The notes under the pieces: generated by a model
Database searches by the model: none
What the model saw: the letters and a program-made list of their open reading frames with translations, nothing else
What the model was told of the DNA's origin: nothing
In this document: one piece after another, positions 7,401 to 59,414 of the stretch
Position numbering within the stretch: the stretch's first letter is position 1
Layout of the letters: the number at the start of each line of letters is the position of its first letter
DNA from: Lytechinus pictus
Taxonomy: Eukaryota
Direction of reading: 5' to 3'
Length of the DNA stretch: 60,000 nucleotides
Assembly: GCF_037042905.1 (NCBI RefSeq)
Contig: NC_087251.1
Location: 47,184,001-47,244,000 of the forward strand
Position numbers and translations under genes: made by a program

Positions 7401-8380
7401 CTCTCTCTCTAACCACCATACTGATCTCCATCTGCCTACATGTTGATTTAATCCCATCATCTTTTTATTGGTGTGGTGCTACCCTTATAAGGGATACTTG
7501 ATATCCATCAAATTTCCTCCAAGTGGGTGTTTCATAAAGCTGTTTGTAAGATACGAACAACTTTACGAATGACTGGTTATCCTTCCTCAGGCGCTAAATC
7601 AACACCAATAAAACTTTGGTGTGTATCCTTTACCAGAAGGATCACCAGTCATTCGTAATGTTGCTCGGAATTTACAAACGGCTTCATGTAAACACCCAAT
7701 GGAATATTTCAAAATGTTGCAATTGTCACCTTGATGTGGAGGCAAGGGTAAGAATCATTAATATTCTTTTGACTTTTCATCATTTCCTGTTGCATACAGC
7801 GATGAAGGACCTCACCTTTGCTCCCTGTATCAGTAAATTAACTTGACTTTTCGTATAAGATTCCATCTTAACAGAGATACTTTAAGACCATCACTTTCCT
7901 TGAGGCTGCTTGCATCACTGATGTTTTCTCTCTCCTTTCCTTCTTACCAGGATTTCAACAAATTCATTACTTTCTTTGAGGATGTTCACAGTTCATCTTC
8001 CTTTTATTATTCCTCCTTCTGTTATTCCTTCTGGAGCAAGACCCGTCACTGCTTGCTTCGAGGATGCTTGCATCATTGCTCGTTCTGTTGACAAGATCTG
8101 TCTTTCTCCAATTGTTCCTCTGACTGTCCTTTTGATTACTTTCACTCCCAATTCCTTGATTGACATTTCATTCTGCCTTGCATTATTCTCCCCCTTCATT
8201 GGTTCTGCCAACGGATCTTCGTTTCTTGATATGATCCAACACCATGTCCTTGTTTGGATCTTCCCTCATCTCTTGCCGATCATAGATCCATCATCCTTCT
8301 GTTATTCCTCTCTCCGTCTTTCCTTCATGTATTCCTCCTTCCATCTTTCCTTCTGTTATTCCTCCCTTCTGTTTTTCCTT

Positions 8381-21200: not shown

Positions 21201-24200
21201 ATAGTGCTTGGTTATTTTTAGACCCTTCTCATGGCAAGAAGGGGGGGGGGGGTGAAATCGCCCCATAAGCTTATCATAGTTTAACTCCTCACTGATAACA
21301 TATTTCAGAAATTCATTTTCATAATTTATTTTGAAACTTTTTATGACACCTTACCCTCGTAAGGGCTCCCATACTGAATCTAGAAACTTTCGAACTTTGA
21401 AACGATATGCCCAAGCAGTAGGGAGTCATCAACAATTTACTGGTATACACAGAGGCACCAGTGCTAATCTGTTTTCATCCACAATGCAGTTCGCACCTCC
21501 TCCCAGTGACGAAGCAGATGCAGTTGATTTATGGTCAACGTCTGCGAGAGAGCTGCATTTGAGTCATATCGGTCTGCTAGAGTCAGTTTAATGAATTTTT
21601 ATTATGTAATATTGTCATCTCATCGAAAGACTGATGAGCTTGAATAATTAATAAACATAGATTGGACTTCTCCTTTAAGCCTCTCACCAATAACAATGCA
21701 GACAGCCAAAATGTGAAACCATGCTGCACTACTTACCATAATGAGGTTCAAAGAATTCTGGAGGTGCGGAATAGAAGTCCTCCAACTTGAAATCATTGCT
21801 CCCTTTCAAGGTGAACCCAAAACCTTTGACCTTGAAGTCCTTCTTTTGGCGAGACTGTGTTCTTCTCCATACCACGTACTCTGAGAAACCTCCAGGGCCG
21901 GCACACGCGTCGGCAAAGTACAACAGCTCATTGTCTTTCACAACAGGTGTCTGTGTTGGAATGGTAAAATGAGACCAATATTTTCATTTCACTGCCTGCC
22001 CACATTTTTGTTACGTGTTCTTCTTCAGTGCTGGCAGGTTTTTCCTTTTGTTATTGTTTTTTTTTAGTTAATTTTTTGGACATAGAAAGGTTAATATTTC
22101 AATACCATAGTCAATATGGTGAGTGTTCGCCCTTCATCTGATATTACGTTGCCACACCCACATTACGGGTGACTTATTATTATTCCACAGTCACATCGAC
22201 AAAACTATCAAAGGTCTGTCGGATAACAAGATTAACACTTGTTTGAATGGCTTCAGCGTGATTTGAAAATTACGTTTTCAATTTTGTTTACAGACTGTCA
22301 AATCTATTGCATTATTCCTATAAAATGACATACCATCGGTCAAGTTTCATTTCGTGTGACTCTAGCATTGAGTTATAAGACTTACCCCATCTGGGTGTTT
22401 TGGTGATGTGAACATGTAATCACAGACAAAGTCCATATTGGCCATCTTCATGGCTGCTCTATTCAAGAAGATACCGCCTCGGATCGTCTCGTGGGGATTG
22501 GAGCGTGTTCTTGCTTGCCTCATCTCCTCCCCATCAAGAAGGTCAAAGGTCGTCTAGTCAAAACAATATTACACGCATATTTATTGCACGGCTGTCATGT
22601 ATTAACGTGCTACAGCTGATTCCCCACATTTATCCGATCAGCTGTCAAGGACCTATTGATGTGTTGTACAGGATGTTTTAATGTCCATTTAGGAAATTCA
22701 TCTTGTTTTGACTGAACCCAAGCCGGCAATTATTTACACTTAGGTATATGAACAATGTGTACTAAGCTGAAATTAATTTGTGATCATCAATGGGGTTTAG
22801 GCTGAATTGGTTTGGACCATCCTCCTCATCAGCATCCCTATCACCTGTGAAACTTTCTTTCTTACTCAGAACAATTATTCTAACTTAGGATTAATCGCTT
22901 TAAATGTATTATACTGATGAAACAACTATCACAAACTAATAAATCCACTTTCACCTTTTGATCAAGAAGTGTCTTCAGCAAGGTTTCATCACAGAACTCT
23001 GTCTCATCATCAATTGTCAGCTTTGGCTGTAGACAAAAGAAATGATAATTCATTACATTCTCAAAATAAAGCATGGATCACTGCAAATGAATACAAATTA
23101 CAATTAAAAATGTGTCCATAAATAGCTGTAAATGTGAAATATCTCGAATGAAATATAAAAATCTTATTAATGTGAGTGAAATGTTCATAAAATCTGGGTC
23201 TGTTTCTTAAAGGTCAAGTCCACCTCAGAAAAATGTTGATTTGACTCAATAGAGAAAATCAATCTAGCATAACGCTGAAAATGTCATAAAAATCAGATGT
23301 AAAATACGAAAGTTGTGACTTTTGAAGTTTTGCTTATTTTTCACAAAATAGTTATATGCACAATTTAGTCACATAAGAATGAGAGAATCGATGATGTCCC
23401 TCACTCAATATTTCTTTTGTTTTTTATTGTTTGAATTATACAATATTTCAATTTTTACAGATTTGACAATAAAGACCAACTTGACTGATTCATAAAATGT
23501 TAAACAATGGTAATTCCAAATGTTCAGGGAGAAATAAAACTTTGTTTCACAGGACAATGGGGAGAAAATTAAAATATTTCATATAATAAAATACAAAAGA
23601 AATAGTGAGTGAGTGATGTCATCAGTTCCCTCATTTGCATACTCACCGGTATGTACATATAACTGTTTTGTAAAATTAAGCAAAACCTAAAAATGTCACA
23701 ACTTTCTCATTTTATATCTGATTTTGATGAAAGTTTAAGTGTAATGCTTGTTGGATTTTTATCTTTTTAATCAAATCAACTTTTTTGGGGGTTGGACTTG
23801 TCCTTTAAAGACTATGATTATCATAACGTTGCCATTTTTAAACTACCATGAAAACGTTGATTCTGATTGACTTTTGCTGCCATTTTTGCCATGGTGGTTA
23901 CTAATATAATGGCATAGTCAACATTATCAGAATTAAAAGTGATGAATGCATAAAGTGATGACCAAGTTAAAATAATTTTTTTATTTTAATGTCTGATTAT
24001 CATGCACATTTCTAGCAACAAAAAGTGACACCCTCAAGTCCTTACCTTTTGAGCATCCCATAGAACTTTCCATTCCTCTATCTCAGCGCTGGTTAGGATG
24101 CCTTGCGACGGCTCCATCCATTCTACAGTCTCTTTGGAAGATATCTAGAATAAGAAATCAATGAAATGCTGAAAACACATGATTTGATGGTAGAAGTGTT

Positions 24201-27200
24201 CAAAATAATTTGTAAAGAACAATGATTATCAAATAAATACTACTACGTGTTCTGCATATTATTCTTTCTTGATCACTGAGACAATGTTTTATCAGTGCTA
24301 GTGCAATATTCATGATTTAGATTTAACGATATGTGTGCCTATGTGTGCCTATAACAATAATTCTACTTGCTTATATAGTGCTTTATCAGAAGTCCCTAAC
24401 TGCTCTCTAAGAAAACATCATAATTGCTCTCCTTTTGGCAGTGCAGCCATACGTGCTTTGCATTTAAAGGACTGAATAACCATAAAAGAAAATTTGTAAA
24501 GTTACTCTTTCATTAAAAGTGTACCAGCCATAATAATAAAAGCTTCATATATAAAGACAAACCTCTTCATCTCCAGTCCAGACCACTTCAGAGCTGGGTT
24601 CAAAGCCCTTGGTCTTGAGACCAAGACCACGGCGCCCTCTTTGTTTGGATGCCTCCACGATCTCCACACGTCCTTTGCCAAGTTTGCCAAGTCCAGTGCC
24701 TTTTTTGTAGCCCATTTTAGCCTAGAGGAGAGAAGAAAAAAAATTGATTTCAAATATACCTTCTCCTTGCATATTCAATATTCGATCAGCTTTCCTCCTT
24801 ATACATGTAACTGGCAACAAAAATATTTTCAGTTTAATTCATGTATCTGAAATAATTAAGAATTGAGGAAAATAGGTTGAAACTTGGTGTGTGTGTGTGG
24901 GGGGGATACAGTATTTTGGGATGTTCCGCCTCATTGCCAATTTAGAGTTTAATTACTAACTGTTCCTTTTAAAATGTTCATTTTTTATGAATGATTCCGA
25001 TGAAATTAAATTGGGCACGGTGCATTTTCTTTCCTTATGGTTTATTTAATTTGGAAGTACTGCATCAAAGTTTCTAGACCTAAACCGACATCTCAAGTAA
25101 AAGCAGTAAAAAATCAATATGGTGTTGGGGGTTATGGGATAAACAAAAGTCTACATGACAAGTAAAAGAAATGGTACATAGTACTGTTTTTGCCTTTCCC
25201 CACAATATCCTATTTAAAGAAATGTTGGAAGAATAAAAGTGTATCTACATAACCCCCCCCTCCCCTGATATAGACACAATTATGAGGAGAAGCAAAAATA
25301 TTTGTTTATCGGTACACAGAGATGGGGAAATATGGACAGGGATGTGTGTCCAAACCAGTAGCCTGCATAGAGTCCAATGGTACATTGCCAATATAGGATC
25401 AGGGGCTTGTTTTATAAAGACTTACAACGATTATAACTATGGTAAGAGGGCTCAGCAGCCAATCAAAATCAAGGATTCCATGTAAGTCACGATAATGGCA
25501 AAGTGACAACAGTTGTAAGTCTTTATGAAACGTGCCCCAGCTCCTCGTTTCTTACCATCATATTCTGTGCAATGGAGCTGTATCCCGAAGAGGATGATTC
25601 CGGTGCTGGCTTGGTTGAGACCACTGTTGCACCCATGGATGCACCCATTGATGCACCCATGGGGGTATAAAGAACCGGGGGAGGGGATCCCACTGAAGAT
25701 GAAGAATCAGAGTCGGTGGATGCATCACTCAAGGATTTGAACATCTGCTGGGGGGCATAGGACACACCCCCTCCATCACCGCCCGCATCTTATGAATATT
25801 CAAGGAAAAAAAAATCATCATGCAAGTCTTGTAAAGTTTGATGTGTGTTTATCAGTAAACCTTAAGTATAATACTAGTGAATTTAAAATTCATTACATGT
25901 ATGCCCACATCTGTCTATCAGGTCAACACTTACAAAAGGAATTCAGAATAGTTCAAAATCAAACACTTCATTGTTATCATTATTAAGTTTACATGTAGTA
26001 TCATCATATATTCATACTGTGCCAGGGAGGTGAGATCAAACTGAATCACTGTATTCCGCTTGTTTCTCAGACTCCTAATATACCTGATTGGGGGAGTGCA
26101 TGCACTTGTATTCTGTCTGACATTACGGCACTGTACTTACATGAATCTAGACAATTAAGTTACTATTTTAAAACAATTTGCTTGTCAATTTTAATGTAAA
26201 TTAATGTATGTCAATCGTAACCTAAGTTTCCCCCAAAGCAAATATAATTCATTTCTGTAATTCATCCATCTTGCTGCAAAAGAATTTTCAATAAGCTATA
26301 TCCTACATGTAAGTTCATCTAATATTTCTTTTTAAAGTTGATAACAACATTATTATTATTATGTATTTGGACCAGCTGGCAGAGTAAATAAAGTTCATTG
26401 GAATATTATACAAATAGCGAATAGGCATGAGTGCGATGGTGCGAGATTTCGCATGAGGTGAAAGAAAGATGCTCTATTCAACGAGGCGTGAGCCGAGTTG
26501 AATAGAGCGTTTCTTTCTTTCACCGAATGCGAAATTTCGCACCATTGCACGAATAAGAATATTCGCTATTTGTGTTGTACAAAGCCTCGGAATTCAGCGA
26601 AAATATGAAAAAAACAAAGAGTTTATCCCTATAGTAATCTATGAAAAGGGAGCAAAAATACCGAAAGCAGAAAGCAAAATCCCACAAGCGCACATGACCT
26701 TGGGCAGCCTTGCGCATTTAGCCAGCTGGCTTATACGCGTATTGTTCATTTTTACCGAGCGCAATGAATTAAATCGTATTGTGACGTCACCTCCTAAAGC
26801 CGTGCAACAGTACATTTTGGACGGTACATTTTGGATGGTACGTCTTTTGTGCAACGGTACGAATGTTTGACATTTAGCCTCCCATTTGCTCGCGTACAAC
26901 AAGCTAAGTAGGCGTTGTACAAAATGGAATGTGATGGAACTACATCTAAATGTTTTATTGATCAGATTCGCACAATGCATCATTCAACACAGAGGCACCA
27001 CAGGTACATGTATTTAAATCATCTTGTACTTGGCTTATTATTGCACTTATTGTCACTCACAATTACTGTAAAATACATAAATCCATCAAATGTAATATTT
27101 CCAACATAAATAGGTCTATTACATTTAATTGAATTAAAAGCAACAATCAATGAATTGATTCTTGAAACAATGATTCAAAATGAATTGTTTATCACAGCAT

Positions 27201-29563
27201 TCCAATCAATGCAGCTACTGAGAATTCTGCCTGTGGTGTATTGCTAAGAACCATAAATGCATCTACATGTACATAAAAGTAAAAAGGGCCTGGCTGCACA
27301 GTGAACAATTTGCAATTTTGCGCAGCTTTGGCAAAGGCCCTTTGGACCGTCTGAAGAGGAGAGCTCTATGTAGAAAACAATTAATGTCCATGATTTAGAT
27401 TTCTCCTTAGGGAAACAGCTAAACAACAAATTTTGTCAATTTTGCACACAGCTGCAACATCATGGACAGGGACTCAGGCTCAAGTTACAATAGGACTGAA
27501 AACAGGTGAAACCGGAATTTTGCATAATAATTGTCGACTTGATGCGCTGGATGCCCGGGGGGGGGGGGGGGGACGGGAGGCAGTCAAAGATATTGCTGTA
27601 CACATACATTACCCAAAAAACGTGTTTTAAAGGGGTGTTTTTTCAGTTTTGGACGCGGGCTGCGTGTGCATTTGTTTAGGGTATCAAAATGACAAAAACA
27701 CTGATTTTCAAAAAAAGGGGGGGTCTTGAAAGACTGGTCCATCACGAGGCCAATCATATTTAGGGTACCGTATGTTTTTTTTCCAAAGCTTTTTTTATAA
27801 GACCTGCCAAACGTGTTTAGAGTATGTTTTTCCGCCAAGCTTTTACCCCGGGGCTTTTTCCTCCTCGTTTCTGAAAAGTGTTCGGGTTCTTCCCAATTGT
27901 TAGATTTTAACTCTAACAGCACTGGGTCTGGGGGGCATGCAATACGGTACCATGAATATAGTTTTGTCTAATTAAAGGTCAAGTTCACCCCAGATAAATG
28001 TTAATTTGAACAAATAGAGAAAAATCAAACTAGCACAACTCTGAAAATTTCATCAAAATTAAGTTTCGCTTAATTTCACAAAACAGTGATATGCACATTT
28101 AAGTGACATGCAAATGAGATAGTTGATGATGTCCCTCACTCACTATTTCTTTTGTTTTTTATTGTTTGAATTATACAATATTTCATTTTTTACAAATTTT
28201 GACAATAAGGACCAACTTGACTGAACCATAGAGTATTAAACAATGCTAATTCCACATGTTCAGGGAGGAATTAATTGTTGTTTCCCTTGACAATGAGGAG
28301 AAAATCAGAATATTTCATATTTCTTATAATAAAAATACGGTACAAAAGAAATAGTGAGTGGATGACGTCATTGGTCTCCTCATTTGCATACCGACCAGGA
28401 TGTGCATATAACTTTTTTGTGAAATCAAGCAAAACTTTAAGATGTCATAACTTTCTTACTTTGCATCCGATTTTGATGAAATTTTCAGGGTAATACTTGT
28501 TGGATTTTTCTCTTTTTATTCAAATGAACTTTTTGTAGGGGTGGACTTGTCCTTTAAGCTTATTGTTAGCAAGTAGACAAATCTTGTTTAGGGGTCATAT
28601 TCTGGCGACAACTTGTTTAGGCCATTCATTAGTTGCCAAAATGTGTAAAGCTAAAACTAAAAGACCATAAAGAAACTTGTTTAGGGAGTTTTGCACGCAT
28701 ACAAAACTTGTTTAGGGGTGTTTGGAAATAATTTGGTCACGTAGGTGTAACAGTTACACTAGATCTACAGCAATACATTTGACTGCCCCCCCCCCCAAGC
28801 CAAGGGTTGGATGCTGCTTTTTTTTCTATATACAAGGAAAGTTGGAATGATGGAATCACAATCAATGGTGACATTTTTAAAGATTAACTCATACGGAGAA
28901 AAGAAACAAGGAAAAAGCAAATGTTGTCCTATTCTCAATATCCCACTGAGAAAATTTTTAACCCATTTCCCCCGCGAGCGGCTAGTCTTAACCGGGTTTG
29001 TGATCTAACCAAGGGAGCTCCGGCCCGCGATGCGGACCGGAGCCCAGGAGTCGACCATGCAAAACGAGGGAGACAATGGGGTAGATTGGGGTCTCAATAG
29101 TAATCTTAATGAAATGTGGAAACAGAAATTATGCACTTACCACCTGAAGGTCTATTGTGACACACAAACTGAGGTTCCAGTCTGTGCCTCGATGTCACTT
29201 TTTGTCAGGATTTGTGTGTCACGATACGGTAGACCTTCATCCATATAATCGTGGTAAGTGCATAATTTCTGATTCCACATTTTATTAAGATTACTATTGA
29301 GACCCCAATCTACCCCAGTCCCATGACCATGTCTCCCTCGTTTTGCACGGTCGACTCCTGGCCTGGGCTCCCTGGGTTAGTTTGTGATCTTGAGTTGAGC
29401 TCCGCCGAAGAACCCGGCGGGGCTCCTGACCTTACTTCGCCCGGCCCCTTTTTCATGCGTTTACATTCGAATCTAAATAGATGAGATTCTCACCGCTAAT
29501 GTGTGATTTTTTGGACCGAGGGGGATCCTCAGACTCCCATTGCTGCTTCCTTTTCCTATCCAT
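8381..29563 (-). CDS. CMTR1: Cap-specific mRNA (nucleoside-2'-O)-methyltransferase 1, ~856 aa. Exons 29494-29563, 25556-25788, 24563-24721, 24046-24144, 22955-23026, 22386-22553, 21737-21950, 20886-21004, 20112-20208, 19239-19371, 16300-16479, 15672-15786, 13694-13762, 13037-13177, 12285-12413, 11678-11769, 11051-11167, 9925-10037, 9356-9464, 8381-8522
   Basis: Basic NLS-like start (MDRKRK). G-patch ([18 protein letters not shown]...GRRGLG). FtsJ-type methyltransferase with [14 protein letters not shown] and a K-D-K-E tetrad ([27 protein letters not shown]). GTase-like region and a WW domain ([18 protein letters not shown]). The 20 exons join in frame (2571 nt) with GT-AG junctions. Confidence 0.95.
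10927..11059. repeat. Three tandem copies of a 49-bp unit containing the CMTR1 exon-17 splice donor
   Basis: ACATTACTCACCTCTCCATG recurs, with ACTCAC at 10947, 10996 and 11045. Confidence 0.9.
11815..12275. repeat. Imperfect (ATC/ACC)n microsatellite in a CMTR1 intron
   Basis: Directly visible; explains the poly-Met and poly-Ile ORFs. Confidence 0.95.
13856..15190 (-). mobile_element. Helentron-associated (HINE/DINE-like) non-autonomous element with ~6 internal 163-bp tandem repeats
   Basis: Subterminal inverted repeat GTCTCGCCTGCAT / ATGCAGGCGAGAC, a hairpin near 15160-15186, a T-run at one end and CTTGTT at the other. Repeat units start at 14092, 14255, 14418, 14581 and 14744 and carry TGACCTTTGACC. 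Confidence 0.7.
16790..17095. repeat. Imperfect (ATC)n microsatellite
   Basis: Directly visible; explains the poly-His and poly-Met ORFs. Confidence 0.95.
18519..18560 (+). ncRNA. Degenerate hammerhead-like relic of Penelope type
   Basis: CUGAAGA-C, stem II GGACAG/ucaac/CUGCCC, AAAA in place of GAAA, palindromic ACGU, GUC triplet. Confidence 0.4.
18876..19214. mobile_element. Small TIR element (AGAGCTGC...GCAGCTCT) with an internal 136-bp tandem duplication
   Basis: Near-identical units start at 18926 and 19062; the ends are inverted. Confidence 0.6.
20234..20696. mobile_element. MITE-like element with CCCCAAGTCT.CGCAC inverted repeats
   Basis: CCCCAAGTCTACGCAC / GTGCAGACTTGGGG at the ends and CCCCATGTCTGCGCAC / GTGCGCAGACATGGGG internally. 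Confidence 0.55.
23207..23808. mobile_element. TTAA-flanked Kolobok-like MITE, copy 2
   Basis: TTAA-AGGTCAAGTCCAC...GGACTTGTCCT-TTAA; homologous to the copies at 2536 and 27972. Confidence 0.85.
26410..26575. repeat. Long near-perfect palindrome (hairpin-forming transposon end)
   Basis: CAAATAGCGAATA...CTCTATTCAAC-GAGGCGTGAGCCGA-GTTGAATAGAG...TATTCGCTATTTG. Confidence 0.8.
27555..28796. mobile_element. G-tract-flanked TIR element interrupted by a Kolobok-like MITE
   Basis: GGCAGTCAAAGATATTGCTGTA (~27578) versus TACAGCAATACATTTGACTGCC (~28766), with poly-G and poly-C outside. Confidence 0.65.
27972..28557. mobile_element. TTAA-flanked Kolobok-like MITE, copy 3 (nested)
   Basis: TTAA-AGGTCAAGTTCACCCC...GGGGTGGACTTGTCCT-TTAA. 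Confidence 0.85.
29040..29370. repeat. ~330-bp foldback (inverted duplication) in CMTR1 intron 1
   Basis: 29041-29143 is the reverse complement of ~29251-29370. Inner arms TGAAGGTCTA/TAGACCTTCA and GTGACACACAAA/TTTGTGTGTCAC continue the symmetry. Confidence 0.85.
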
Positions 29564-39800: not shown

Positions 39801-42800
39801 GATGCTATTGATTCCTTTAAATAATTAACAAATATACTCTCCTTAAGCACTAGTGGATCCTTTTGAGAGGCACAATTAGAATTTGTGGATGTAGAAATGC
39901 TGTTAAAACAGAAGTGTGCCCCTCCACCTTTTTGAAAGTGAAGACATCTTTTTTTTCCCCTTTTTTTTTTGCTTGTAAAAATTTTCCTCGCGGAAAATGT
40001 GTCCCCCTTTTGGAAAATCCTGGATCTGCCCTTGTCCTCAAGATCTGTGACTGAGTGCAAACTTACTTATTCGATCCCAGGCATTTTAATAGCAAGAGAC
40101 TATGGCCATCGGTGCCCATATTACTGACCACAATACCCTCTTTCTTTTAATAAATTTGGGAACACTGTTAATTTGTGCTTTCTAGTCTGGCTGTGGTGCC
40201 ATTTCCTTATAAATTTGATTTTAAATTATCAATTACATGCCATTTGAAAGGTTATATTTGAGCCCCCTCTCTGGCATTGGTGCCCTCAGCTGCCTGGCCT
40301 AATGCATTTCCATCTTCACAGCTCGTTCAATTTCTTCTTGTTAAATAAAGTGTAGCAATTGGCCTGCCTTCTGAAGTCTTGTTTAACTTAAAACATTGGT
40401 AGCCAAAAATATCAGAAATTCATTTAAATCTCTTTTTCAAATGTTTATTTTGGTGTTTCCCCGTGTTGTAATGGTGAAGAAAAACAATTTTAATTCTTAT
40501 TTCCTCAAATTTATGACTGATAGGAGTGTCAAATGAGCTGAAAAGTTGAATCTTCAAACCATACTGTTATAGATTTATGTCACAATTTGCTATCCATAGT
40601 TAAACTATGACTTCAGATCAGAATTTATTTCAAAATCTAGTTCAAAATACGGGCCTATATTTATTCACATGATCGGCTTTTTATTCATCATGTGGTTACA
40701 TAGCAAAATAACATACCTTTGAAGTAGTGATTCCTGCAGAATGTAAGGAATTCATGTGGTACATTCTGACGACACCATCTTCAGATCCAAGTAGTAGACT
40801 AGTGTTGCTGTGTCTTTATGATGGAGGAGAAAAATAAAGATAAGCATTACATACGTGTATTGTGGTATGAAATTATCGAAGGATGTCATTCAGAAATTAA
40901 CGCTAATTTCAAGTTGTCATTTCCGTATCCTAGATTGACCAAAAACATTAAACTTTATTAAAGCATGTATTTTGATTATAACATGCATGTAGTATAGCCG
41001 GTATGCCTAAATTTCTCCATTTCCATATAGTTCAATCCAGAATTAGCAATAACTCTGAGAACAGTTTTGAAGATCAAGGTGATTTTTCTTTCATTGTAAT
41101 TGTGGCAAGTTGCTGCATAGTGTGATAAAGCCAACTATTGTGAAAAAACCTATAAGAAAACCGATTAAGGCTGAAAATATACTGAATACTGCCCACCTAA
41201 ATAAGCATGTTCATGTTTTAATATACAAGTACATCTTAAAAGTTAAATTATGGCCTGTTTTACTGATAGCATCCCTTTCTTATTTTGCTCATTACCGAGT
41301 AATGAACCAGAGTATGATAGACATAACCATCTGCTCTTGGAAATTAATTTATCATTACTAAAAATATCTATTTCATTTCATCATTAAAGACATTATTGCA
41401 TAATGAGGAATTATGAAAATGTCAGTATTGATAGAATCATTTAGGCGATAATAGTACTGTAATGCAAACACTTTATGGTTACTTTATTTGATTCTGTTAG
41501 AATTAATATCATGATTGTTACCATAGCTGAATAATTTGTATTCATGATTTCAACCAGGTGCGCAAAAAGTTTCACATGTATATATGTTGCTCTCTCCAAC
41601 ATTAATGATCATTACCTTCTATTGACATGACTAAGTTCCACTTATCAACAATGCCAATATGACAAATATGAAGTTATCATTGATCATAATCATATTAATT
41701 ATGATCAAGACATAATTATTAATCCCCCACCATCATTCATCATGCATCATCAATCATCACCAAATAATTTGAATCAATTTTTAATGTCAATTATCATCAT
41801 CATTATTCAATCACCATCATCCACTCATTCTATGAACAAGGCTATCTGACATCAGTCATCATCAGTTTCAGTTTCAGTTTCAGTTTTACTCTGACAAGAA
41901 CACGAGGAAGCCTTTCGGGGAAAGAATATCGAAATTACCCGAGCCTCTCCAATATGAAATTGAGGATATGTACTCGTATACTTTTATACCTTTTTGGCAT
42001 TATCGGTCACCAATAATATCCATGGAGATATCGGATTATATATCGAAAAGTGACAATTTAACATTCCAGAAACAAACAAGTCTTGAATTAATACACAAGA
42101 AGTGGTATAACTTCTTACAAATCTTCACTGATGGTTCGAAGTCTCCTGAAACTGGAAAAGCAGCAGCAGCATTTCATGTACCCTATTACAAATATATATA
42201 TTCAATGAGACTCCAAGATAATACATCGTCTTATAGATCAGAGCTTGCAGCGATTATACTAGCATTAAATTGGTTGAACCAATTACCCAGTCTTTATACA
42301 GGAGCGGTAGTGTTTTGTGATTCACTCAGCGCACTAGAGGCAATCAAAACTAAAAAAGAAACTAACTTTGTGAATGAAATTCTGTTAATGTATACACAAT
42401 TGTATAATAAAGGAATAACAGTGTATTTTGAATGGATCCCAAGTCATTGTGATATCAGGAACAATGAGGTGGCGGATATCGCAGCCAAAAAAGGTTTACG
42501 GCACAGCCAAATTGATGTAAATAACAAAATTAGTAAGCATGAATCAAACTGCATTCTTAAAATGTACTTTACACAAGTATGGCAAAAAAAATGGGATGAA
42601 ACATTATCCCCTTTGAAGGACATTCAAAAATCAGTTTCGAAAACTTTCAAATGTGTTCTAAACCAGAGATATAGCACATCTATTTTACATTGTCTCCGAA
42701 TGAACAATATTGATCTTAACGAGAATAGACGGCTTGTTAACAACCACGAAACAGGTCTATGCTCATTCTGTGCTGTGCCGGAAACAACTCTCCACTATCT

Positions 42801-44054
42801 CACAAAATGTCCCGAATACTCACAAGAAAGGGAAAAGCTCTTACTTGAAATAAATAAAAGTGAATTGGATATAAAGAGAATTCTCAATTCAGCAGAGTAC
42901 TCGCATCAAAAAGCCTTGGTATCCTTCGTAAGAAGGACCCAAAGATTCACATAGTATATTCGAGTCGTTTTAACATATTGTTAATTGAAATAATTGAACG
43001 TTGTATTTAGTTCCATTCATGTATGAATCTCATGTTTGATGACTCTTATAAACCCATGTTGGGGAAAAATAATTATATACGTGTTGATATGAATGCATTA
43101 CACATATTATGTCTTTTGTATGATCTTATCAATTTGTAAATATCTGATTTATTGAACAAACTATGAGATGTGAAAATTAACCCAATGCACGATAATTGCA
43201 CAAGACTCAGAACGTTTGTTTTGTCTCGAACCTAACCATTTGTACTAACTTTGATTTTCGAAAATCGGATGAAGGAGATCATTTCGTCAACAGACATCAC
43301 ACAGCCTTGACTGGTATTGGGGGGGCCTAAGGCTACGCATGCGCATCATGCAGTAGCTGAGAAACCTGATCAATGTACCGATCCGGGCTTGGCCAGATAA
43401 TACATCTAAAGAGGTTAAGTGATTTGTGATGACAGTCTGTTGTGATCCTCCAAAATTGCGCGAATAATGCAGCGCTCTACCTTCCTTTTTACTGAATTGA
43501 TTCAAGTACAGAAAAGTTATAAATAAAATTACCGCAAATTATGCTGGCGCAAATATTCACTACTGAATGACACGCGCCGTATAAGCTAAAACAACAACAA
43601 CAACAACATCATCATCATCACCCCCCCCCCCCCCCCCCCTCTCATGAGTCATACTCATACTTTATACTTATAGCTCATTTTCCTTTCCATTTCTGAGTTT
43701 TCATCTCGGAGTCGGAGCTGGCAGCCGCATAGACCATAGTTGTGGCCTTGCACTATGCAGCAAACTTGCATCCCCGTCGCGTCGCCATCGTACAGTTGCA
43801 GACTTGCAGTTGCAGTCCATAGTCTTTTCATCTAGTGAGATACTCTGTATCGGTCCGGTTTAACGTTACAGCTTACACCTACCGCAGTATGTGGGGCACA
43901 CGTTACAAATCCGGACTTCGTTATATGTTCACATTTAGAACTTGAAAATAAATCGTATTTCTATTTACCTAAACGTACGCCCGACCAGGAGTGTGTTGAA
44001 GCTTTCCTTCACTTGAAGATTCCAAAGGGGTTGTATTTCAATTTTGAAAGGCAT
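33889..44054 (-). CDS. Uncharacterised ~350-aa predicted beta-propeller (WD40/FG-GAP-like) protein. Exons 43969-44054, 40717-40813, 39201-39396, 38214-38332, 36928-37089, 35533-35658, 34751-34888, 33889-34017
   Basis: Eight GT-AG exons join in frame (1053 nt) from ATG to TGA. Repeated blade-like motifs: LLLGSEDGVVRMY, LITADSRGMITIF, IVAGDVEGQVHSV, ILASDRAKNLHFI, VALGGEDGTISIM, VVIGCRDKQITAI. Family not recognised. Confidence 0.8.
34978..35136. mobile_element. Short GGG...CCC palindromic MITE with a central CCAAT. Related elements at ~7044, 7525, 17720, 18254, 25402, 39645 and 58231
   Basis: GGGTCCCGTTGCA...TGCAACGGGGCCC; the internal CAGCCAAT.AAAATCAAGGATTCCAT is shared with the copy at ~25456. 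Confidence 0.6.
35675..36567 (+). mobile_element. Probable solo LTR (~893 bp)
   Basis: TGTTA...TAACA termini, AAAT 4-bp TSD on both sides, TATATAA at ~36026 and AATAAA at ~36519. Confidence 0.6.
41885..43609 (+). mobile_element. 5'-truncated I-group (Nimb/Ingi/I-like) LINE in intron 1 of the beta-propeller gene
   Basis: Intact ORF2 C-terminus, ~650-bp 3' UTR and (AAC)n tail, inserted in ATC-rich sequence. Confidence 0.85.
41968..42954 (+). CDS. LINE ORF2 fragment: RNase H plus CCHC zinc knuckle (transposon-derived, no RT domain)
   Basis: IFTDGSK, SSYRSELAAI, VFCDSLSAL, EWIPSHCDIRNNEVADIAAK, and CSFC...HYLTKC. Confidence 0.85.
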   Translation: MYSYTFIPFWHYRSPIISMEISDYISKSDNLTFQKQTSLELIHKKWYNFLQIFTDGSKSPETGKAAAAFHVPYYKYIYSMRLQDNTSSYRSELAAIILALNWLNQLPSLYTGAVVFCDSLSALEAIKTKKETNFVNEILLMYTQLYNKGITVYFEWIPSHCDIRNNEVADIAAKKGLRHSQIDVNNKISKHESNCILKMYFTQVWQKKWDETLSPLKDIQKSVSKTFKCVLNQRYSTSILHCLRMNNIDLNENRRLVNNHETGLCSFCAVPETTLHYLTKCPEYSQEREKLLLEINKSELDIKRILNSAEYSHQKALVSFVRRTQRFT

Positions 44055-48279: not shown

Positions 48280-49235
48280 TCAGTTTCAGTTTGATTTATT
48301 TTCATTTCAACCCAAGTCAATTTAACAGTAAAAGAAATCATTACAAAGAAATAAATGAATATACAATTATATACAGTATGACATAGATAAATAAATATTT
48401 ACAAGAGACACTAAACAATATGATAATCATATTAATAATGATATTTACAATGAACTAGATAATCATAATAATAACTGTAGACTATTCATGATAAAGCATT
48501 TTGCATATAATTTATTTTATTCATCTTTATTCAACTTTACCTCAAAAGAATAAGTTAAAAGACAGATTTGTAGGTATAGGTATAAATGCAAGAACGAGAA
48601 AAGAAAAAAAATCCTAAAAAGCTATTGTGATGGATGGAGTACGGAAATGATGGATGGAAAGTGAAAGAAATTTAACCGAGAAGAAAGACTGGTGCACCTG
48701 TGTGGATGAAAGAGAAAGAAAGAGAAAAAAATAAGGGTGATGGCAGATGAAAGGGAAGGACAAAGAGGAAGGAAGAGAGAGAGAGAGAAAGAGAGAGGTT
48801 GGGTCTTGAGCGCTCAATTGGGGCTTACTCTATAAGATTCGAGAATGTGCTTTTTTAGCTTGATTTTAAAGCAATTCAGACTAACGGAGTTAATGATGTC
48901 GTGACTGAGTGTATTCCAGTATTTAGGACCGTAAAAGGAAATTGTTTTTTGTGCAAGTAGAGTGCGGGTACGGGGAAGGTGAAAACGGAGGGATTGTCTT
49001 GTTGGGTAATTGTGAATGGCGTTATTTTTTGTATACATGTTAATTAATATGTTTGGCAGTTCGTTTGAATTCAATTTGTACATGAATTGCCCTGTTTGAC
49101 AAAGAAATAGATCTGGAAGTTTTATAATATTCGACTTGTAAAATAAATTGTTAGTATGAGAACGAGGAGGAGCATTATGTATAATTCTTATAATGTTCTT
49201 TTGTATGATGAAAATTTTGTCTGTAAGATATATTT
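48280..49235 (-). mobile_element. L2/Crack-type LINE 3' fragment
   Basis: ...IQKNIIRII...SHTNNLF...HNYPTRQ...FYGPKYWNTL...FKIKLKKHIL; pyrimidine-rich 3' UTR, AATAAA and a (TGAAAC)-like tail. Confidence 0.8.
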
Positions 49236-52200
49236 CCTATACATGGCCTTTTCCCCATTTCTATAATGTATTTCTTGTTTTTGCTTAAAAATCGACTCAC
49301 ACGCAAGAACTATTTGCAGAAAAAACACAATTGCTTTTAAGTTCTTTTAACATGTTGTGGCATTTCTGTCGAGATTTCTATGTGATTCCTCTCAATTTCA
49401 CATTCCCCCCCCCCCCCATTGTCTCTATATATAACGCGCATTAAAAACAAAAACCATTTTAGGCACAAAAAAAAGAAAGAATACAATGTTATTATTGCAC
49501 AACCATGACGTCTATGGGGACGGAGAATGAAAACAAATATCGGACACGAACTAATTGAATGTCGAATCGGATATTCTTCTCTTTGGGCACTCTTGAAGAA
49601 ACAGTGTAAGCGAATTACGTCATTCAATATACATTTGTCATGCCTGTTATACATATATATATTTCATCTATTTTCCTGGGGTGTTTTTTTCTAAAATTTT
49701 CTTCTGTTCTTGATATGTACTAGTCTCAGGAAGTTTAATGTTTATTGGTCATACAATGCTATAGCCTATATGTTCTTTTTGCCCCCTCCGAAAAAAAGGA
49801 AAAAAGGGTTCCTGTAATTATTACTTTACACGTTTTGGAGCACAAAAATAAGTATTCTTTATTCTATAATGAAATACGTGTATACACAAATAATGTTGGT
49901 CTGTGTCATTATAATCATTGTATATAGAAACAAAGTATTCTTAAAAAATTGTGAATATTATCAATTTCTTATTAATTTCTTATTAACCTGAATGATATGC
50001 TTATTCGTGCATTATGTATAGAAGCACAAGCTTCAGATAGATGAAGTGTTGGGCGCTACAGGGGGGGGGGGGCAGGGGCGGACGCCCCCTTTGGTTATTC
50101 AAGTAGTGGGGGATTAACAAATTAGGAAGAAAGGGGGAGGAAAGAAACGAGGAGGAAAGAGTAAAGCAACTAGAGGTCTAAGTCGCGTAACTGCATGTAT
50201 ATCACAATACCCCTATAATTCAATTAAGAAAAATTGACGTCACATTTAGCTCGTTTTGTCCTCTCCCATCAAAATATCTTAACGCCACCCCTGAAGCAGG
50301 AAGAGAGAGAGGGAGAGAGACAGGGGGAAGGGGAGAGAGGGAGATGTAGAGGGGGAGGGCCGAACCGGGATGGGGGGTGGGAACAGTGAACATGGGGAAG
50401 GGATGTCAGATTTATATGGTCAACTATTTGTACTGCATTTTGGAAGTCTATTTCCTCTTTGTTTTTACACCATTCGGTTGACTGATTACGCCGTTTCCAA
50501 AAGTGACGATGTCCATCTTTAATCACTTTTAAAAAGTAATCTAGAGTTTTATGGGGCTATTGATTTCCATTAAGAAGTTGCGAGAGGACTGCCTGGGCAG
50601 GTCACCGTGACCTTTTCCTTTGGTATATGCCCGTTGTAGCAGAAGTCTTTATTTCCTCTATAAGGAAATTGAATTGTGGTCCAGTAAGTTCATTTGACAG
50701 TGTGCGCCCCTGATCACGCAATGTTTACATTACACAAAATACAGAGATGAAATTTAAGGTTGAAAATTAAGGATTGATAAAGATTTGTTTCTCATATTGG
50801 ATGGAGGTGAATTTGAAATTAAATTTATCGAGATTAAAAGAAAATAAATAATTTTCAGTGTATAATCTTCTCATTTATTTACATGCCCTTTTATCTATGG
50901 CTGAATAATGTATGAACACGCTACCCCAACTAACCAATAAAATAAAAAAAACGAAAATAAACGAAAGATGAGGGACATGACCATCGAATCTCAAAAGAAG
51001 GATGAAGGTAATGGTGTGCATGACGTTTTTTGTTAATTATTGACATTCGTTAGACACAGTGATCATTTCACATGATTGCGGGGTCCATCGATAATGTTAC
51101 AAGAAAGGGCGAGTGACCGAGAGGGGGGGGGGGAGAGATGAGAGGAGAGAAGAGGTAATCTCACAACGAATCTCTGAAGTGAACTTCCAAGGTACCAACT
51201 ATTCTTCATCAGCCACGGGAATTCGTCACATGAATCATGGTGATGCCAACACAGTTCTCCATGAATAAGCCAATATCAGAAGAAGACCAAAGAAATAAAA
51301 CATCCACAAAATATCACTGGATTTTGTCTTGAGAGGAATGCCAGGTAAAATACAATATAAAATAATTCATAAATTATTATCTTCTTTTTATTTTTGCCCT
51401 TTTATATCATGGGACGTTGGTTTTATTTTTGTATCGAACATAGTGTAAGAAAACGGGACCACAATCATGTCCATATATTTAGCTAGTCAGCTACTGTTTT
51501 CTGGTGATACAACGTGAGATAATTTCCAAAATAAAATTCGATTTCTTTTTAATTTAAAGAGATATATATATATAACAACTTTTAAAGACAAAGAGAGTTG
51601 TCACTTATTGCATCTGTTAGACTGACATCAGACATTCTGTCTACTTCACATTTTCTATTTAAAACCACCCAAACAACGTTACGCGTGTAAACCATTACAG
51701 AGGTATGAAAGAGATCCACCAAGGCAGCTTTCTAATTCCTTCATTTAAACTACCACGTTTCCGTATCTGAAGGTAATCTTCAAACCGTCACTTCAAATCA
51801 ATGGCATCTTCGCTAGCCTATCCGTCTGGCATTTGGCGGGAAAATAATAAATACCCGAGAGCGTCTGTCTGTTGAAACGGTCGGTATCAACTGTAAATGC
51901 TAGGAAAAGGCCTGGAAGCATCAGCTTTTACAACTTTTGCGGTTGCTTTACGCCATGTGAGGGATATTCGAGAAAAAATCCATTACTGTGCGACTGTATT
52001 TGCGCGTCTTTTTCCACCTTTTCCTGTATATGTCTGCAGTTATTTAAAATAATTAAATCCTCCCACGTATGGAAAATAGTTATCTGCATATCTCTCAAAG
52101 AGTGCCATCTTTATTTTTCCTTTGGATATTGACTTCGATTATTCTTTGAAAATCCTTAAATGCTCTGAACGTTTGAATGTGCCTTACTCTTTAGTATTAT

Positions 52201-52712
52201 CATAATCTTAAACCTCTTCGATGTCGCCATCTATACTTTTGCAAACGGTTGTGTTGTTCTCATGTAATATATGATATTTTATTTCATATGCAGTTTGTAA
52301 TATGTTAACGTTTTTCTATATTCAATTAGTCCAGACATGCATTGCAGACACATTAAAATTACTCAGATATTTTGAGTACATTATTTATTTACAACAAAAT
52401 CATATCCATATCCTACAGTTTAAATCGGTTATTAAACCTTTTTTTCATTTCACCTACCACTTTCTCTTGCTTTGCTATATAATGTTCCTTTGAATCTGTC
52501 TTAGCGTTTGTTTGGCTTAAAACAATTAAAAATCATATCTGTTCATTTCCAACAGAAAGCACAAATACATTACATATTAAAATTTCAGAACATTAATATT
52601 GATTATTTTATTTTGGGTGTTACTAACGATATGATGCTAATTCTGATAGTGTCTGTTACAAATGAATTACCGCCTTTAACCTTCTCAATGACAAAGGTTC
52701 TCGTGTATCCGT

Positions 52713-52985
52713 GGGCGCCTCGTGGTCTAGTGGTTCTGACTCTCGCCTTTCAAACAGAGGGTCGTGGGTTCGAATCCTAGCAATGGCGTGTTTTCCTTCA
52801 GCAAAAAATGTATCAACACTGTGCTGCACTCGACCCAGGTGAGGTGAATGGGTACCCGGCAGCATTATTTCCTTGAATTAAGTGAGCGCCGGTGATGGTA
52901 GATCAAGCTAAAGCTGGGGTAATGATAGTAGCGCTTTGTATCCTCAGGCAGAAAGTGCTTATAAATTGTTATTATCATTATTATT
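52713..52985 (+). mobile_element. tRNA-derived SINE
   Basis: Box A TGGTCTAGTGG, box B GGTTCGAATCC, central GACCCAGGTGAGGTGAATGGGTACC (a fragment also lies at ~8870-8925 on the minus strand), and an (ATT)n tail. Confidence 0.85.
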
Positions 52986-53786
52986 TTCTCAAAGAAACTT
53001 CTGTACATTCTTCCAATCCCCTCTCGTCTCCCTGTCTCCCTCTCTCTTTCTCTCTGTTTCTCTCTCTCCCCCCCTGCATCACCCTCTGATTACTTCTTAT
53101 CTCTTCTTTCTGCAATCTGTACATATTGTAATGTACTTTGAAAAAACCCACCTTGTTTAAGTTCTTTAAAATATAGGTTTTTGGGTGTCATAAAGGGGAG
53201 GGGGTGAATATGGTTTGAATAAATCACAGTCATTCTTTCTTTTATAAGAATTTTTATCAATCAGACTGTAATGATTCTAATACAATTATTGATTAATTGT
53301 TTCGTTGACTGATTGATACAAAGCTATTGTTTCTGGAAATCGTTGTCATATTTATTAAAAACAGAAAAAAAATATGAAATGCAATGTCGAGCTAAAACTT
53401 ACAATCTAATTCTGTAAGATGGAAGAGAATGTGTGTGTGTGTGGGTATTTGGGTTCATGCGTACAAAACATGGGTTCTTGTGTGTGAATAATTATGATTG
53501 CAAGTTTAATTTCATTCCAGTGGATGTACAGTTTCATGTTGGTGTGCGCAATAATGGGTGTGGGAGTCATGTTGGTGTTGGGGTGTGTGCGGGGTTATAG
53601 TGTTAAAATCTGTAAGGGTGATTGTGTTCAAGGTATGTGTGAGAGTGGGATGGGCATGTGGATGATGGTGGAAATCAGAGGATGGTGAATGGACTTTATA
53701 CCTATTATTCAAGTTATATATACTTTTTCTTGTTACATGGAAAAATATAGATGAAATTCCCTGTGGAGGTATGCAGGTTCATAAAT

Positions 53787-53789
<3 letters not shown>

Positions 53790-53860
<71 letters not shown>
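53790..53860. repeat. (TA)n microsatellite
   Basis: Directly visible. Confidence 0.95.
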
Positions 53861-54252
53861 GGCGTAAATAATTCAAGCATTGACGCTAGACGTAGCTTCC
53901 AAGTATCTCATTTATTGCTAGCTTTCGGCCAGTAGGGCCTTCATCAGGCCTATAATGCATTGAAACAAACAAAATAGAACAAAACCATACAAATAAAATC
54001 GTAATAACAACAAAGTAAATAAAGGGTAACAAAGGGTACAGAACAGAAGGATTACAGTAAGATAACAAAAAATAACAACAGAGGGGGTAATGACTTAAAC
54101 GAGATGGTTGAGTACAATAGAAACGATTGGGTAACTTAAGTGTGTAGAAAGACAAAGGCCCTATGAAGACCCTACTGGCCGAAAGCTAGCAATAAATGAG
54201 ATACTTGGAAGCTATACGTCTAGCGTCAATGCTTGAATTATTTACGCCTATA
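53857..54252 (-). mobile_element. Penelope-like fragment with inverted ~95-bp terminal repeats, inserted in (TA)n
   Basis: 53857-53950 is the reverse complement of 54156-54252; each arm carries a hammerhead-like core. Confidence 0.75.
53909..53957 (-). ncRNA. Minimal hammerhead ribozyme motif with a canonical core
   Basis: CUGAUGA-A, stem II GGCC/cuacu/GGCC, GAAA, palindromic AGCU stem III, CUA triplet; weak stem I. Confidence 0.7.
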
Positions 54253-55540
54253 CATAGAACATGACGCGCTGCAACACACGTTGTGCACAGGGCCCTCTTC
54301 CTTTTTACATATATATATGTATATATATATATATATATACATACATATAATCATCATGACCATGTACGTCGTATTAATATATGTGGGTAATACAGCGTCT
54401 GTGGCTGCGAACGCGTGCATTTCGTTTAATTATGAATATGGACGAGTATGAGTGTGGGTGTGTGTTTATAGGTTGGGTATGTGATTGTGGGTGAGTGCTG
54501 TCGAGCTTATGCACCATTTCTGATGTGTGAAGCAAACTTTATATGTGTGTTTTATTGAAATCTGTGTAAATTATTTTAAGGATATAGTCGAAAATAGTGG
54601 ATCTCGCTATGTCATTCAAGACAATTACAGATAAGATAAAGAGTAATTAAGCAACTCGGATTAGGTGGAAGCGATAGAAATGGGTATAGCCGGGAACGAG
54701 AATGGGATTTAATATGTTCTACAGTCTCGTGGGATTAGTTTCATTTAATATCCTATAATTAATCCCCATCTTAGCTGTTGGTCGCTGAATATAAATTGCA
54801 GATAATGCCCCTTGAAGCCTTGAAATAAATAATTGCATATTGTTATCAAATGTCAATGACGCAGTCGAATCCATTAAAATGAAAATAATTGTATATTCTT
54901 ATCCCCGCAATTCCATTCATTTTGCAGTCGGAAATAACATATTTAATATTATATCCGCTACAGCTATTCCCATTGTTTTCTGTGTGTTTTTTTTTATTTC
55001 AACTTTGCAATTTTCAAATGAAAGTGAAGAGGCTATTCTTTTTCTAAAAATAGATCGGTGAATCTGATTAAATTTCAAACGCACTTCTCAGCCAAGGTCA
55101 TTTTGACTGGCGATACTGGGATTTTTGTGTTGTTTGATAAGAACATAAAAGCATGTAAAACGCACGCATAAAAATAATATGAAGAAGAGACACATCGCTT
55201 AATTGGTAATTCTTTATGTGACTTTGATTTTTTAATGATATATCATGGATGATAACGACGTGACAACTTATAATCAAACACGTGGTTTTACCATCATCCG
55301 ACAATCCGATGTAACCGAGTTTCAAACCAATGGCAGTCATTGCCTGTCTAAATGTAAATAACTTAAGTGCTACCAAAGCCATTCTCAGAATAACAATATA
55401 TTGAGTACTTACATAGCAATAGGTAGCATGGATAATAGGCTTGGCAGATGCCACTTACATCAAAAGATCGTCCCCTCTGATTAACCTTTCACTATCTCTC
55501 AGAGCTCATTTACAGGTTACATTGCTAATTATTAGTGTTG

Positions 55541-57430: not shown

Positions 57431-58783
57431 TTCATGTTCTGAATTTATGTATTTTTTATTGTAGCATCTCTTTGGCTATTGGTGGTATTAGTTTTCACTC
57501 CTTGGTATATATTCTGTAAATGAATGATTGTATTCTGTAAATTGCAGTATATAATCTACAGGTGTTTCAACATCTACTATAGATTATGATTGCGAGTTGT
57601 TGGTGTATATTCTGTTATTGGTGGTATATGTTGCGGTTTGTTTTTAAAGGTGTTTCCAAATCTACTCTAGACGAATGACACTTAGTAAATTACTTTAATT
57701 CTTTAAAGCTTACCCGAAATAATATTTGTTTAAAATGGCATGTTTTAAATGATGGGCATAGTTATTCATTACACCGATATTTGCAGGCCTACATAAGATT
57801 TGTTTTATTTCCATTTCTCAATAGTTTTGGGGCCCCTTAAGCATTTTATCCAAAATGAAAATCAAGTTTGATAAAATGAAAGGCCTTTTCATTATTCTGT
57901 AGGTTTATAACCATTCACATCAGTCCATGCAGCAATCAAAAGCAACAAACCAAAGTGCAGCCAACACGTGTCTTCTGCCAAACTATATTATCATAATTCT
58001 GACGCATAATTCCATACCCATACAGTGACACATGCTTAATCATATACCCAGCGATCTTGACTGGGATTAGCCTATATACCACTTATCAGTTCAATGTAAA
58101 GTAAAGTAGAATACTATGTAGCGAGCAGAGATTGTTCATCCATCCATGGTGGAGCAACTGGACGTCATAGTGATTCCCAAGGTCACAGAGGTAGATTCTG
58201 TTCCTAGGGTATACATACACCAGACACTACTGGGTTGCTACAAGAAAATTGCTATCAATCGGCAAGTCTATTCTAGGTCCCTAAATCAATCATATGTTCT
58301 TCAATTGATTACAAATTTGCAATTGATTGTCGTTCCGCTTCTTGTAAAAATAAGTGCAATCTTGTTTGCTTAAGCTAAATTTGATATATCAATTGTAGAA
58401 TTGCGACAGAATATTTGCAATTAATTGGAAATATTTTATTGCAACACCCCCTAAGAATGTACATTTTTTCTGATTCATTATGTTCATTTATTTCGTCTTA
58501 GAGTATGCTTGTTTACCTATCTTACTTATTTTCTGATCTTACTCAGCAGCCACTTTTTATAAGCTTTCTAAAATTATGAACGAATCGTAACAACACTGAT
58601 AACGATAGAGATATAGATGATAATGATCATGATGATAATAATGATCATTATGAGTATGATAAGCTATTATCAGTTTCAACAGATAATTGTAAATTATGTT
58701 ATGGTTTTGTATTATTTTTCTGTTGGAAATTTAAAAATACGAATTGGGAATCAACTGATTTCGACTAATAATATTAAATGATA

Positions 58784-58976
58784 CACTCTTAAAATGTTGG
58801 GCAACATACTGTCCACACAACAGTTGGTTAAAATATTTATCCAACTCTGGGTAGTTTTCAACCAACACTATGTAGTTTTCACCCAAAGCACACATTGGTT
58901 TAAATCTACCCAGAGTTGGATAAAGTTTTAACCGATTATTGTGTAAACAGTATGTTGCCCAACATTTTAAAGAGTG
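58784..58976. mobile_element. Fully palindromic MITE with a TA TSD
   Basis: TA-CACTCTTAAAATGTTGGGCAACATACTG...CAGTATGTTGCCCAACATTTTAAAGAGTG-TA. Confidence 0.85.
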
Positions 58977-59414
58977 TAATGTTAAAACTATTGTTGAATA
59001 TATAGGGCCTATATAGTTATCTTCGTAGGAGAACTCAACTGTAGTGTGGTGAAACGTACAGTTTATTGCCTCGGAGAGTGTAATAAAATCATTTCAGTCT
59101 CTAGACTGAGATAGCTGTCATAAATATAATACTTTTTTTTCACTTTTCAAAGCTTGTATTTGAATGAATATATACACAGTATATTACGTTTTCAGCCCCT
59201 GTCATGTTCGCTTTTAAGGAGTTGCTAACAATTTTGCTCTCTTGTATTGCATCATATTTTCATAATTTTTATGGTTGAAAAAAAAAATGAAATTGAAATG
59301 GAAATAGAAATTGAAAGCCATACTAAGGGCACAGAAGATAGTGCGAGTTAAAAGAGATTGGGTCATAGAGGTGAAGGAGTTTGAGTTAGAGAAAGAAAGA
59401 GAGAGGGGTGGAAT

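Follow-up and report, generated by a model that had tools for sequence, protein, structure and literature searches.

The question raised by this locus is whether a short non-coding insertion that carries a hammerhead motif between inverted arms is a ribozyme-bearing unit in its own right or a remnant of a longer retroelement. The window (the whole 60,000-nt stretch of DNA analysed) is AT-rich animal DNA with a GC content of 29-40%, short exons and repeats, and the insertion lies at 53857-54308. Our preferred answer, to which we assign a probability of roughly 0.85, is that it is a retrotransposed, head-to-head insertion of a Penelope-like element (PLE), presumably twin-primed, whose hammerhead is most likely inert; it is an ordinary insertion of a known kind, and its motif is typical of such elements.

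The whole insertion (53857-54308, no strand assigned; left border uncertain by 4 nt, 53857-53860) consists of two 5′-truncated 3′ ends of one repeat family, placed head to head. The longer copy, on the minus strand, comprises the left arm (53857-53951), which holds the hammerhead motif and the 3′ end of this copy and stops at the family's "short" end, and a U-rich, non-coding body (53952-54155; T content 52% over 53960-54155), which is 5′-truncated at 54155. The shorter copy is inverted (plus strand) and comprises the right arm (54156-54252), with a damaged hammerhead core and a stem II change at 10.2, and a tail of ~56 nt found on this arm only (54253-54308), which belongs to the repeat family and in the predicted fold forms a small hairpin with an ACAC loop. 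Aligned over 53853-53951 and 54156-54256, the arms share 94% sequence identity (95 of 101 columns); apart from the outer border, the differences are TG/CT (core), G/A (stem II) and an inserted TA. In the right arm U4 and G5 are changed, and the minimal-hammerhead core is thus not intact there. TA runs flank the insertion on both sides (53790-53860 on the left and 54309-54349 on the right). Two claims of a previous reading made from the letters alone (the sequence-only reading), two inverted arms of ~95 bp and a damaged core in the right-arm copy, hold as they were made, and its proposal of insertion in (TA)n is supported. The last 23-26 nt of the left flank recur as the first 23-26 nt of the right flank, down to the lone G that breaks up the TA run (at 54319 in the right copy); this candidate target-site duplication (53834-53856 and 54309-54331, both plus strand; 23 nt, or 26 nt if the border is at 53859) is suggestive only, since it lies inside a microsatellite. 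A coding-potential check gave no convincing coding frame in the body or tail, and neither the element nor the rest of the window yielded a frame for RT or GIY-YIG.

On the minus strand (53917-53949) the left arm contains a predicted minimal type I hammerhead motif, with an intact core, a 4-bp stem II and a palindromic AGCU: C3 is at 53947 (in CUGAUGA), followed by an extra A at 53940, stem II (GGCC/GGCC at 53939-53936 and 53930-53927) with the 5-nt loop CUACU, GAAA, the palindrome at 53923-53920, and H17 (A) at 53919, with the predicted cut 3′ of 53919. The core is complete (C3-A9, G12-A15.1, U16.1, and H17), and the arm has the marks of minimal PLE hammerheads, namely the extra nucleotide between 9 and 10.1, G10.1-C11.1, and a palindromic 15.2-16.2. 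A descriptor scan allowing up to two core mismatches gave eight matches in the window, among which the left-arm motif alone has no mismatch; a perfect-core match arose by chance once in 30 shuffled windows (dinucleotides shuffled block by block, both strands scanned), and a looser pattern, written after the motif was seen, was matched in 2 of 100 shuffles. The inverted arms and the minus-strand motif are real, and a chance origin is unlikely. The scan agrees with the sequence-only reading on the minus-strand hammerhead, its loopless AGCU stem III and the CUA site near 53919; the word "canonical", which that reading also used, overstates the motif, in which contiguous stem I is only 2 bp, with 4 bp more past an internal loop once the hammerhead shape is forced. 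Some other copies of the family can be read as having three stem I pairs (through a GG insertion behind 53916, or a loose end before 53917). The Rfam search that the same reading had proposed found no hammerhead family in the window: none reached the gathering score, and among the 17 matches at E up to 5 over 52500-55500, mostly TA runs, there was no hammerhead. An AAUAAA directly behind the predicted cut site (53911-53916, minus strand) is presumably a poly(A) signal.

Using an exact core-plus-stem II pattern, we obtained two matches in metagenome contigs (L001 and L002) and none in viral contigs. In L001 a 309-aa frame is followed, 23 nt after its stop, by an identical core, stem II and AGCU, so that region 161-1206 of the contig (minus strand) reads as a C-terminal frame of PLE type and then a minimal hammerhead. 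The Atlas clusters nearest to this frame are eukaryotic and carry PF26215 (96%) and GIY-YIG (19-24%), with a score of 0.97; in Pfam the frame matched 0 families, and in PDB it had only two matches (E 0.65-0.78). We take L001 to be a PLE 3′ end with a frame that is Penelope/Poseidon-like by its motifs, a provisional call based on the Atlas clusters plus those motifs, and the contig is probably host-animal DNA in a metagenome assembly. It is a different family, with no tblastn match of its frame in the window, and it shows where such motifs sit rather than being the parent of the insertion. L002 was rejected as a related motif: its context is GC-rich and coding-like and it has a single stem I pair, pointing to a chance match, so the pattern alone proves little.

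The sequence at 53860-54304 was compared, at 80% likeness, with 4 of 24 listed sequencing runs (X2, which is DNA; X7; and X21 and X24, which are RNA). In X2, 295 of 18.9 million contigs match the 445 bases, with a summed depth of up to 10,869 vs 19-60 for the eight contigs listed, which is not a copy number. The insertion belongs to a dispersed, multi-copy, 5′-truncated family, of which longer copies exist. X2 depth persists at 1443-3410 over 54250-54304, and pieces of this part were also found in X7, X21, and X24; the ~56 nt beyond the right arm are therefore the element's tail, not host DNA, and the right end of the insertion, previously placed at 54252, moves to about 54308 (family depth covers 53860-54304 except at the junction, and 54305-54308 were assigned from the letters alone). 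Toward the 5′ side, X2 depth declines steeply (1677 at 54100, 127 at 54145-54159, 5.6 at 54160-54174), and two X7 contigs and six X21 reads run past 54155 into a sequence that is not a hammerhead (starting GGTATT on the plus strand). Since copies run on with other sequence, the body is 5′-truncated and not a self-contained unit; this and the depth drop indicate that the head-to-head junction is rare or private. At the junction (54155-54158, no strand), the family's continuation and the first letters of the inverted arm have AGG in common, plus one extra A, and no listed piece from the four runs spans it. A second opposite-strand joint, 53909/54083, occurs in one contig each of X2 and X7 (with sides of 41 and 22 letters), so inversion junctions vary. 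Of the other two listed joints (three in all), one skips 113 nt and one duplicates 53 nt internally; none of the three is head-to-tail. Within the body, 54036-54088 (53 nt) is duplicated in tandem in some copies (one X7 contig and one X21 read). One X7 contig, with a loose end before 53866, shows another copy of the family that stops at the left "short" end, next to TA-rich DNA.

The two arms carry the same allele at all five variable places checked, including 53910, where their allele is the minority in X2 (65% of the depth differs); hence they derive from one template or subfamily. The TA insertion near 54213 is private to the right arm, its two extra letters being absent in 140 of 140 X2 depth at 54213. 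Of 64 substitution rows for the family, 40 were listed; none of these 40 affects the core, stem II or the 5′ side of stem I (53920-53931 and 53935-53950), though some of the other 24 may. The variable places among those listed are loop II (53932, 53934, and a 3-nt insertion), H17, and the 3′ strand of stem I. H17 is changed from A to U in one X7 contig, which we assume the NUH rule still permits, and a change at 53915 turns AAUAAA into AUUAAA in 30% of X2 depth. Of the two things that the copies had been expected to show, unchanged cores are thus found in these 40 rows, where stem II is likewise invariant, and stem II covariation is not.

The explanation that survives best next to a PLE insertion, improbable as we judge it, is that the locus is a stray monomer, with an inverted end, of a non-autonomous non-LTR retrozyme, whose head-to-tail tandems are cut by their hammerheads, circularised and copied by PLE enzymes. 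According to a preprint (Li et al. 2026, bioRxiv 10.64898/2026.07.22.740005) and to Cervera and de la Pena 2020 (PMC7229834), a retrozyme must have two or more head-to-tail units in succession and a complete hammerhead in every one of them. The insertion resembles the animal non-LTR retrozymes of the latter paper in being non-coding, a few hundred bases long, low in GC and equipped with a type I hammerhead; the distance from its cut site to the 5′ end of the body, ~237 nt, is inside the 150-450 bp range given there, retrozymes are proposed to be PLE derivatives in the preprint, and the upstream part of our family is seen for 30 letters only. Unlike these retrozymes the insertion is not tandem: the locus has no head-to-tail unit, although arrays elsewhere in the genome are possible, none of the three listed joints connects the cut site to the body start, and what precedes the body is not a hammerhead. 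The motif is also of the minimal PLE type and not the canonical type described for retrozymes, and in the two raw-read runs RNA is scarce (15 matches in X21 and 12 in X24), with no common start or end and no circular junction seen. The sequence-only reading had called the locus a non-coding, ribozyme-bearing retroelement; the body is indeed non-coding, but a separate unit or retrozyme does not agree with copies that extend 5′ of 54155, with joints that vary, and with the lack of a head-to-tail joint among those listed. The piece is most likely non-coding because it is a truncated 3′ end.

Less probable still is a MITE, with terminal inverted repeats of ~95 bp, a duplicated TA and a passenger hammerhead. 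The two arms have the same end point, with TATA after each, and the window has other palindromic repeats, as this explanation would have it; however, family sequence reaches ~56 nt past one arm, the inner junction is marked by a collapse in depth, the inversion of another copy lies at a different point, and other copies have no inverted arm at 54155. What is found is therefore not a fixed element bounded by its terminal inverted repeats. Even less probability goes to the inversion being an assembly or read artefact, in which one PLE end would have been turned into a fold-back chimera. None of the listed contigs or reads crosses the junction in the four runs, and X2 depth at 54160-54174 is as low as given above, but this hole in depth proves nothing, as those individuals may be without the insertion; against an artefact, the arms differ by three substitutions and one 2-nt insertion, the tail is on one arm only, and the flanks are not mirror images.

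We next consider whether the motif could act. Folded without constraint, the left motif does not take the hammerhead shape, which costs 5.7 kcal/mol to force, and a forced dimer lies 16.4 kcal/mol above the free two-molecule fold; the same shape penalty is 10.3 kcal/mol for the L001 motif, so fold energies separate active from inactive motifs poorly. Across the whole insertion the arms pair with each other (-183 and -195 kcal/mol), and the probability of the G10.1-C11.1 pair is 0.0 there vs 0.105 in body plus left arm. By these models, a transcript spanning the insertion would fold into a ~95-bp hairpin that buries the core. Because the two motifs sit on opposite strands, no dimer can form within one transcript. 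With its partner on the other strand and damaged, and with its core buried in the modelled hairpin, the hammerhead in this copy is most likely inert. RNA matching the family amounts to 15 of 8.7 million X21 records (6% of the run) and 12 of 12.9 million X24 records (25% of the run); no match from either run is 99% alike, short circles may be lost from such libraries, and these 27 reads show no pile-up of read ends at the predicted cut site. In X21 all depth on 53860-54304 has the first mate on the minus strand (15 reads only), which, if we assume the usual stranded protocol, would make the RNA antisense with respect to the body and sense with respect to the tail. That the host maintains an active ribozyme here to cut a transcript at 53919 is very improbable: its one point in favour is the intact left core beside the damaged right one, and against it stand the lack of stem III as a monomer, the 5.7 and 16.4 kcal/mol penalties (which, given the 10.3 kcal/mol of L001, separate weakly), and the lack of a read end at 53919.

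A Penelope-like origin with a dimer-type hammerhead, as the sequence-only reading had also suggested, is supported by the comparison with L001, by the family pieces in the runs, and by the published pattern of PLE insertions. By four structural tests the insertion looks like a truncated PLE insertion, and would work like one, with its parent ORF unlinked. We infer a PLE enzyme and twin priming from this anatomy, along the following lines. A PLE endonuclease would cut the (TA)n tract on both strands, and each cut end would prime reverse transcription on element RNA. At one end, synthesis may have begun at the inner, "short" start and given ~300 nt (53857-54155); at the other, it may have begun at the outer, "long" start, ~56 nt further 3′, and given ~150 nt (54308-54156). 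Both cDNAs would have stopped early and joined head to head at the 3-nt microhomology, and repair would have left the target duplication. The hammerhead would be the family's normal terminal-repeat motif, with stem III formed only between two palindromes, so that a second copy would be needed. Tentatively, the pair, which has no ORF, might be read as the trace of twin priming by a PLE in vivo, with both target strands priming on the same RNA at two RT starts and the cDNAs joined at a microhomology; we consider this reading to be rather doubtful. A single fold-back cDNA would copy the left flank and not the tail, so the locus argues against a simple snap-back, unless the left tail was later trimmed, in which case fold-back remains compatible. 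A body start at an upstream hammerhead cut, with self-priming via stem I, was considered and rejected: copies continue with non-hammerhead sequence, the other junction is elsewhere, and the tail is on the inverted arm. PMC3846280 ascribes inverted pLTRs to self-priming and leaves the question open. If head-to-head pairs regularly combine a short and a long end with shared alleles, this would provide a genome-wide test of how inverted pLTRs form; the locus brings all the marks of a PLE insertion together within 450 bases, and its family can be used to count how inverted pairs arise. If transcribed, the ~95-bp hairpin could also yield double-stranded RNA; we saw no sign of host use.

We also observed other features of this kind in the window. 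A further hammerhead-like motif occurs in an insert at 3824-4018 (plus strand), which lies in an apparent intron of a gene with exons near 3445-3705 and 4360; the motif has C3 at 3969, U4 changed to C, an extra A, a 6-bp stem II, an AGCU palindrome, a 4-bp stem I, and H17 at 3999. The insert stops 19 nt beyond the cut site and sits between the two copies of a 14-nt duplication (3810-3823 and 4019-4032). From these features it is likely to be the 3′ end of another PLE family. The sequence-only reading had linked it to the body of our insertion through a shared motif. This motif is present, but its significance is weak: 949 of 5000 shuffles reach the score under plain scoring (67 of 5000 under a composition-adjusted scoring tried afterwards), and BLASTN at word size 7 found no match between the two insertions, so we rejected a link on this ground. 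The two insertions finish alike (4000-4018 and 54289-54308), with AGG, a C-rich stretch and then pyrimidines, possibly a shared RT-start feature. At 18523-18552 (plus strand) there is a decayed hammerhead-like core, CUGAAGA ... CAAAACGUC, with G12 changed and an ACGU palindrome, followed by pyrimidine-rich sequence. Tandem repeats at 14040-15118 and 18918-19205 (periods of ~163 and ~136 nt by self-BLAST) gave no match in the hammerhead scans. A MITE-like, imperfect palindromic repeat of ~600 bp has three copies (2534-3134, 23205-23811, and 27972-28558; 77-83% alike), each matching its own reverse complement, and shorter palindromes are located at 29041-29364, 58782-58978, 7524-7698, and 26410-26573. 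A 372-aa frame at 41836-42954 (plus strand) contains an RNase H domain (PF00075, E 1.9e-13) and is probably the end of a LINE; 48814-49236 (minus strand), without a Pfam match, resembles what we take to be another LINE C-terminus.

Minimal hammerheads were described in the pLTRs of metazoan PLEs by Cervera and De la Pena 2014 (PMC4209133), a paper that ascribes most of them to truncated PLEs, puts such ends in the thousands in animal genomes, includes dual minimal motifs on opposite strands 100-700 bp apart, and reports weak activity as dimers and none as monomers; dimer cleavage was reported by Lunse et al., as reviewed in PMC6765202. Our motif has the features given in PMC4209133 (type I core, extra nucleotide between 9 and 10.1, G10.1-C11.1, palindromic 15.2-16.2, no loop 3, and an opposite-strand pair), with a stem II of 4 bp vs 7-8 bp in the Schistosoma families and a contiguous stem I of 2 bp, as in Drosophila virilis, vs 4-5 bp in Schistosoma. 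Poseidon PAc of Anolis (Frangieh et al. 2024, PMC11167929), in which both strands are cut and extended, the tail is the distance between two RT starts, and insertion in vitro does not require hammerhead cleavage, which is assisted by protein, is similar in having two family ends downstream of the hammerhead and an AT-rich target. The hairpin in our tail, with its AC-rich loop, is also like that of PAc, a resemblance noted after the fact. The PAc ORF begins in stem II, where the ATG of our insertion stops after eight codons (frame 0). For EN+ PLEs, Craig et al. 2021 (PMC8557442) describe an inverted 5′-truncated copy, a one-sided tail of 30-40 bp and a (TA)n bias, and Arkhipova et al. 2013 (PMC3846280) describe inverted pLTRs with a tail on one of them and a target duplication of 8-10 bp. 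Compared with these accounts, no ORF is left between the repeats of our insertion, its tail is longer (~56 nt vs 30-40), and its candidate duplication is 23-26 nt vs 8-10. Its direct and inverted truncated copies, one-sided tail, microsatellite (TA)n target and candidate duplication nevertheless correspond to the published insertion pattern. As to the clade, the (TA)n bias and the hammerhead would fit Neptune best, going by PMC8557442, while the motif itself is closest to that of L001, with its Penelope/Poseidon-like frame.
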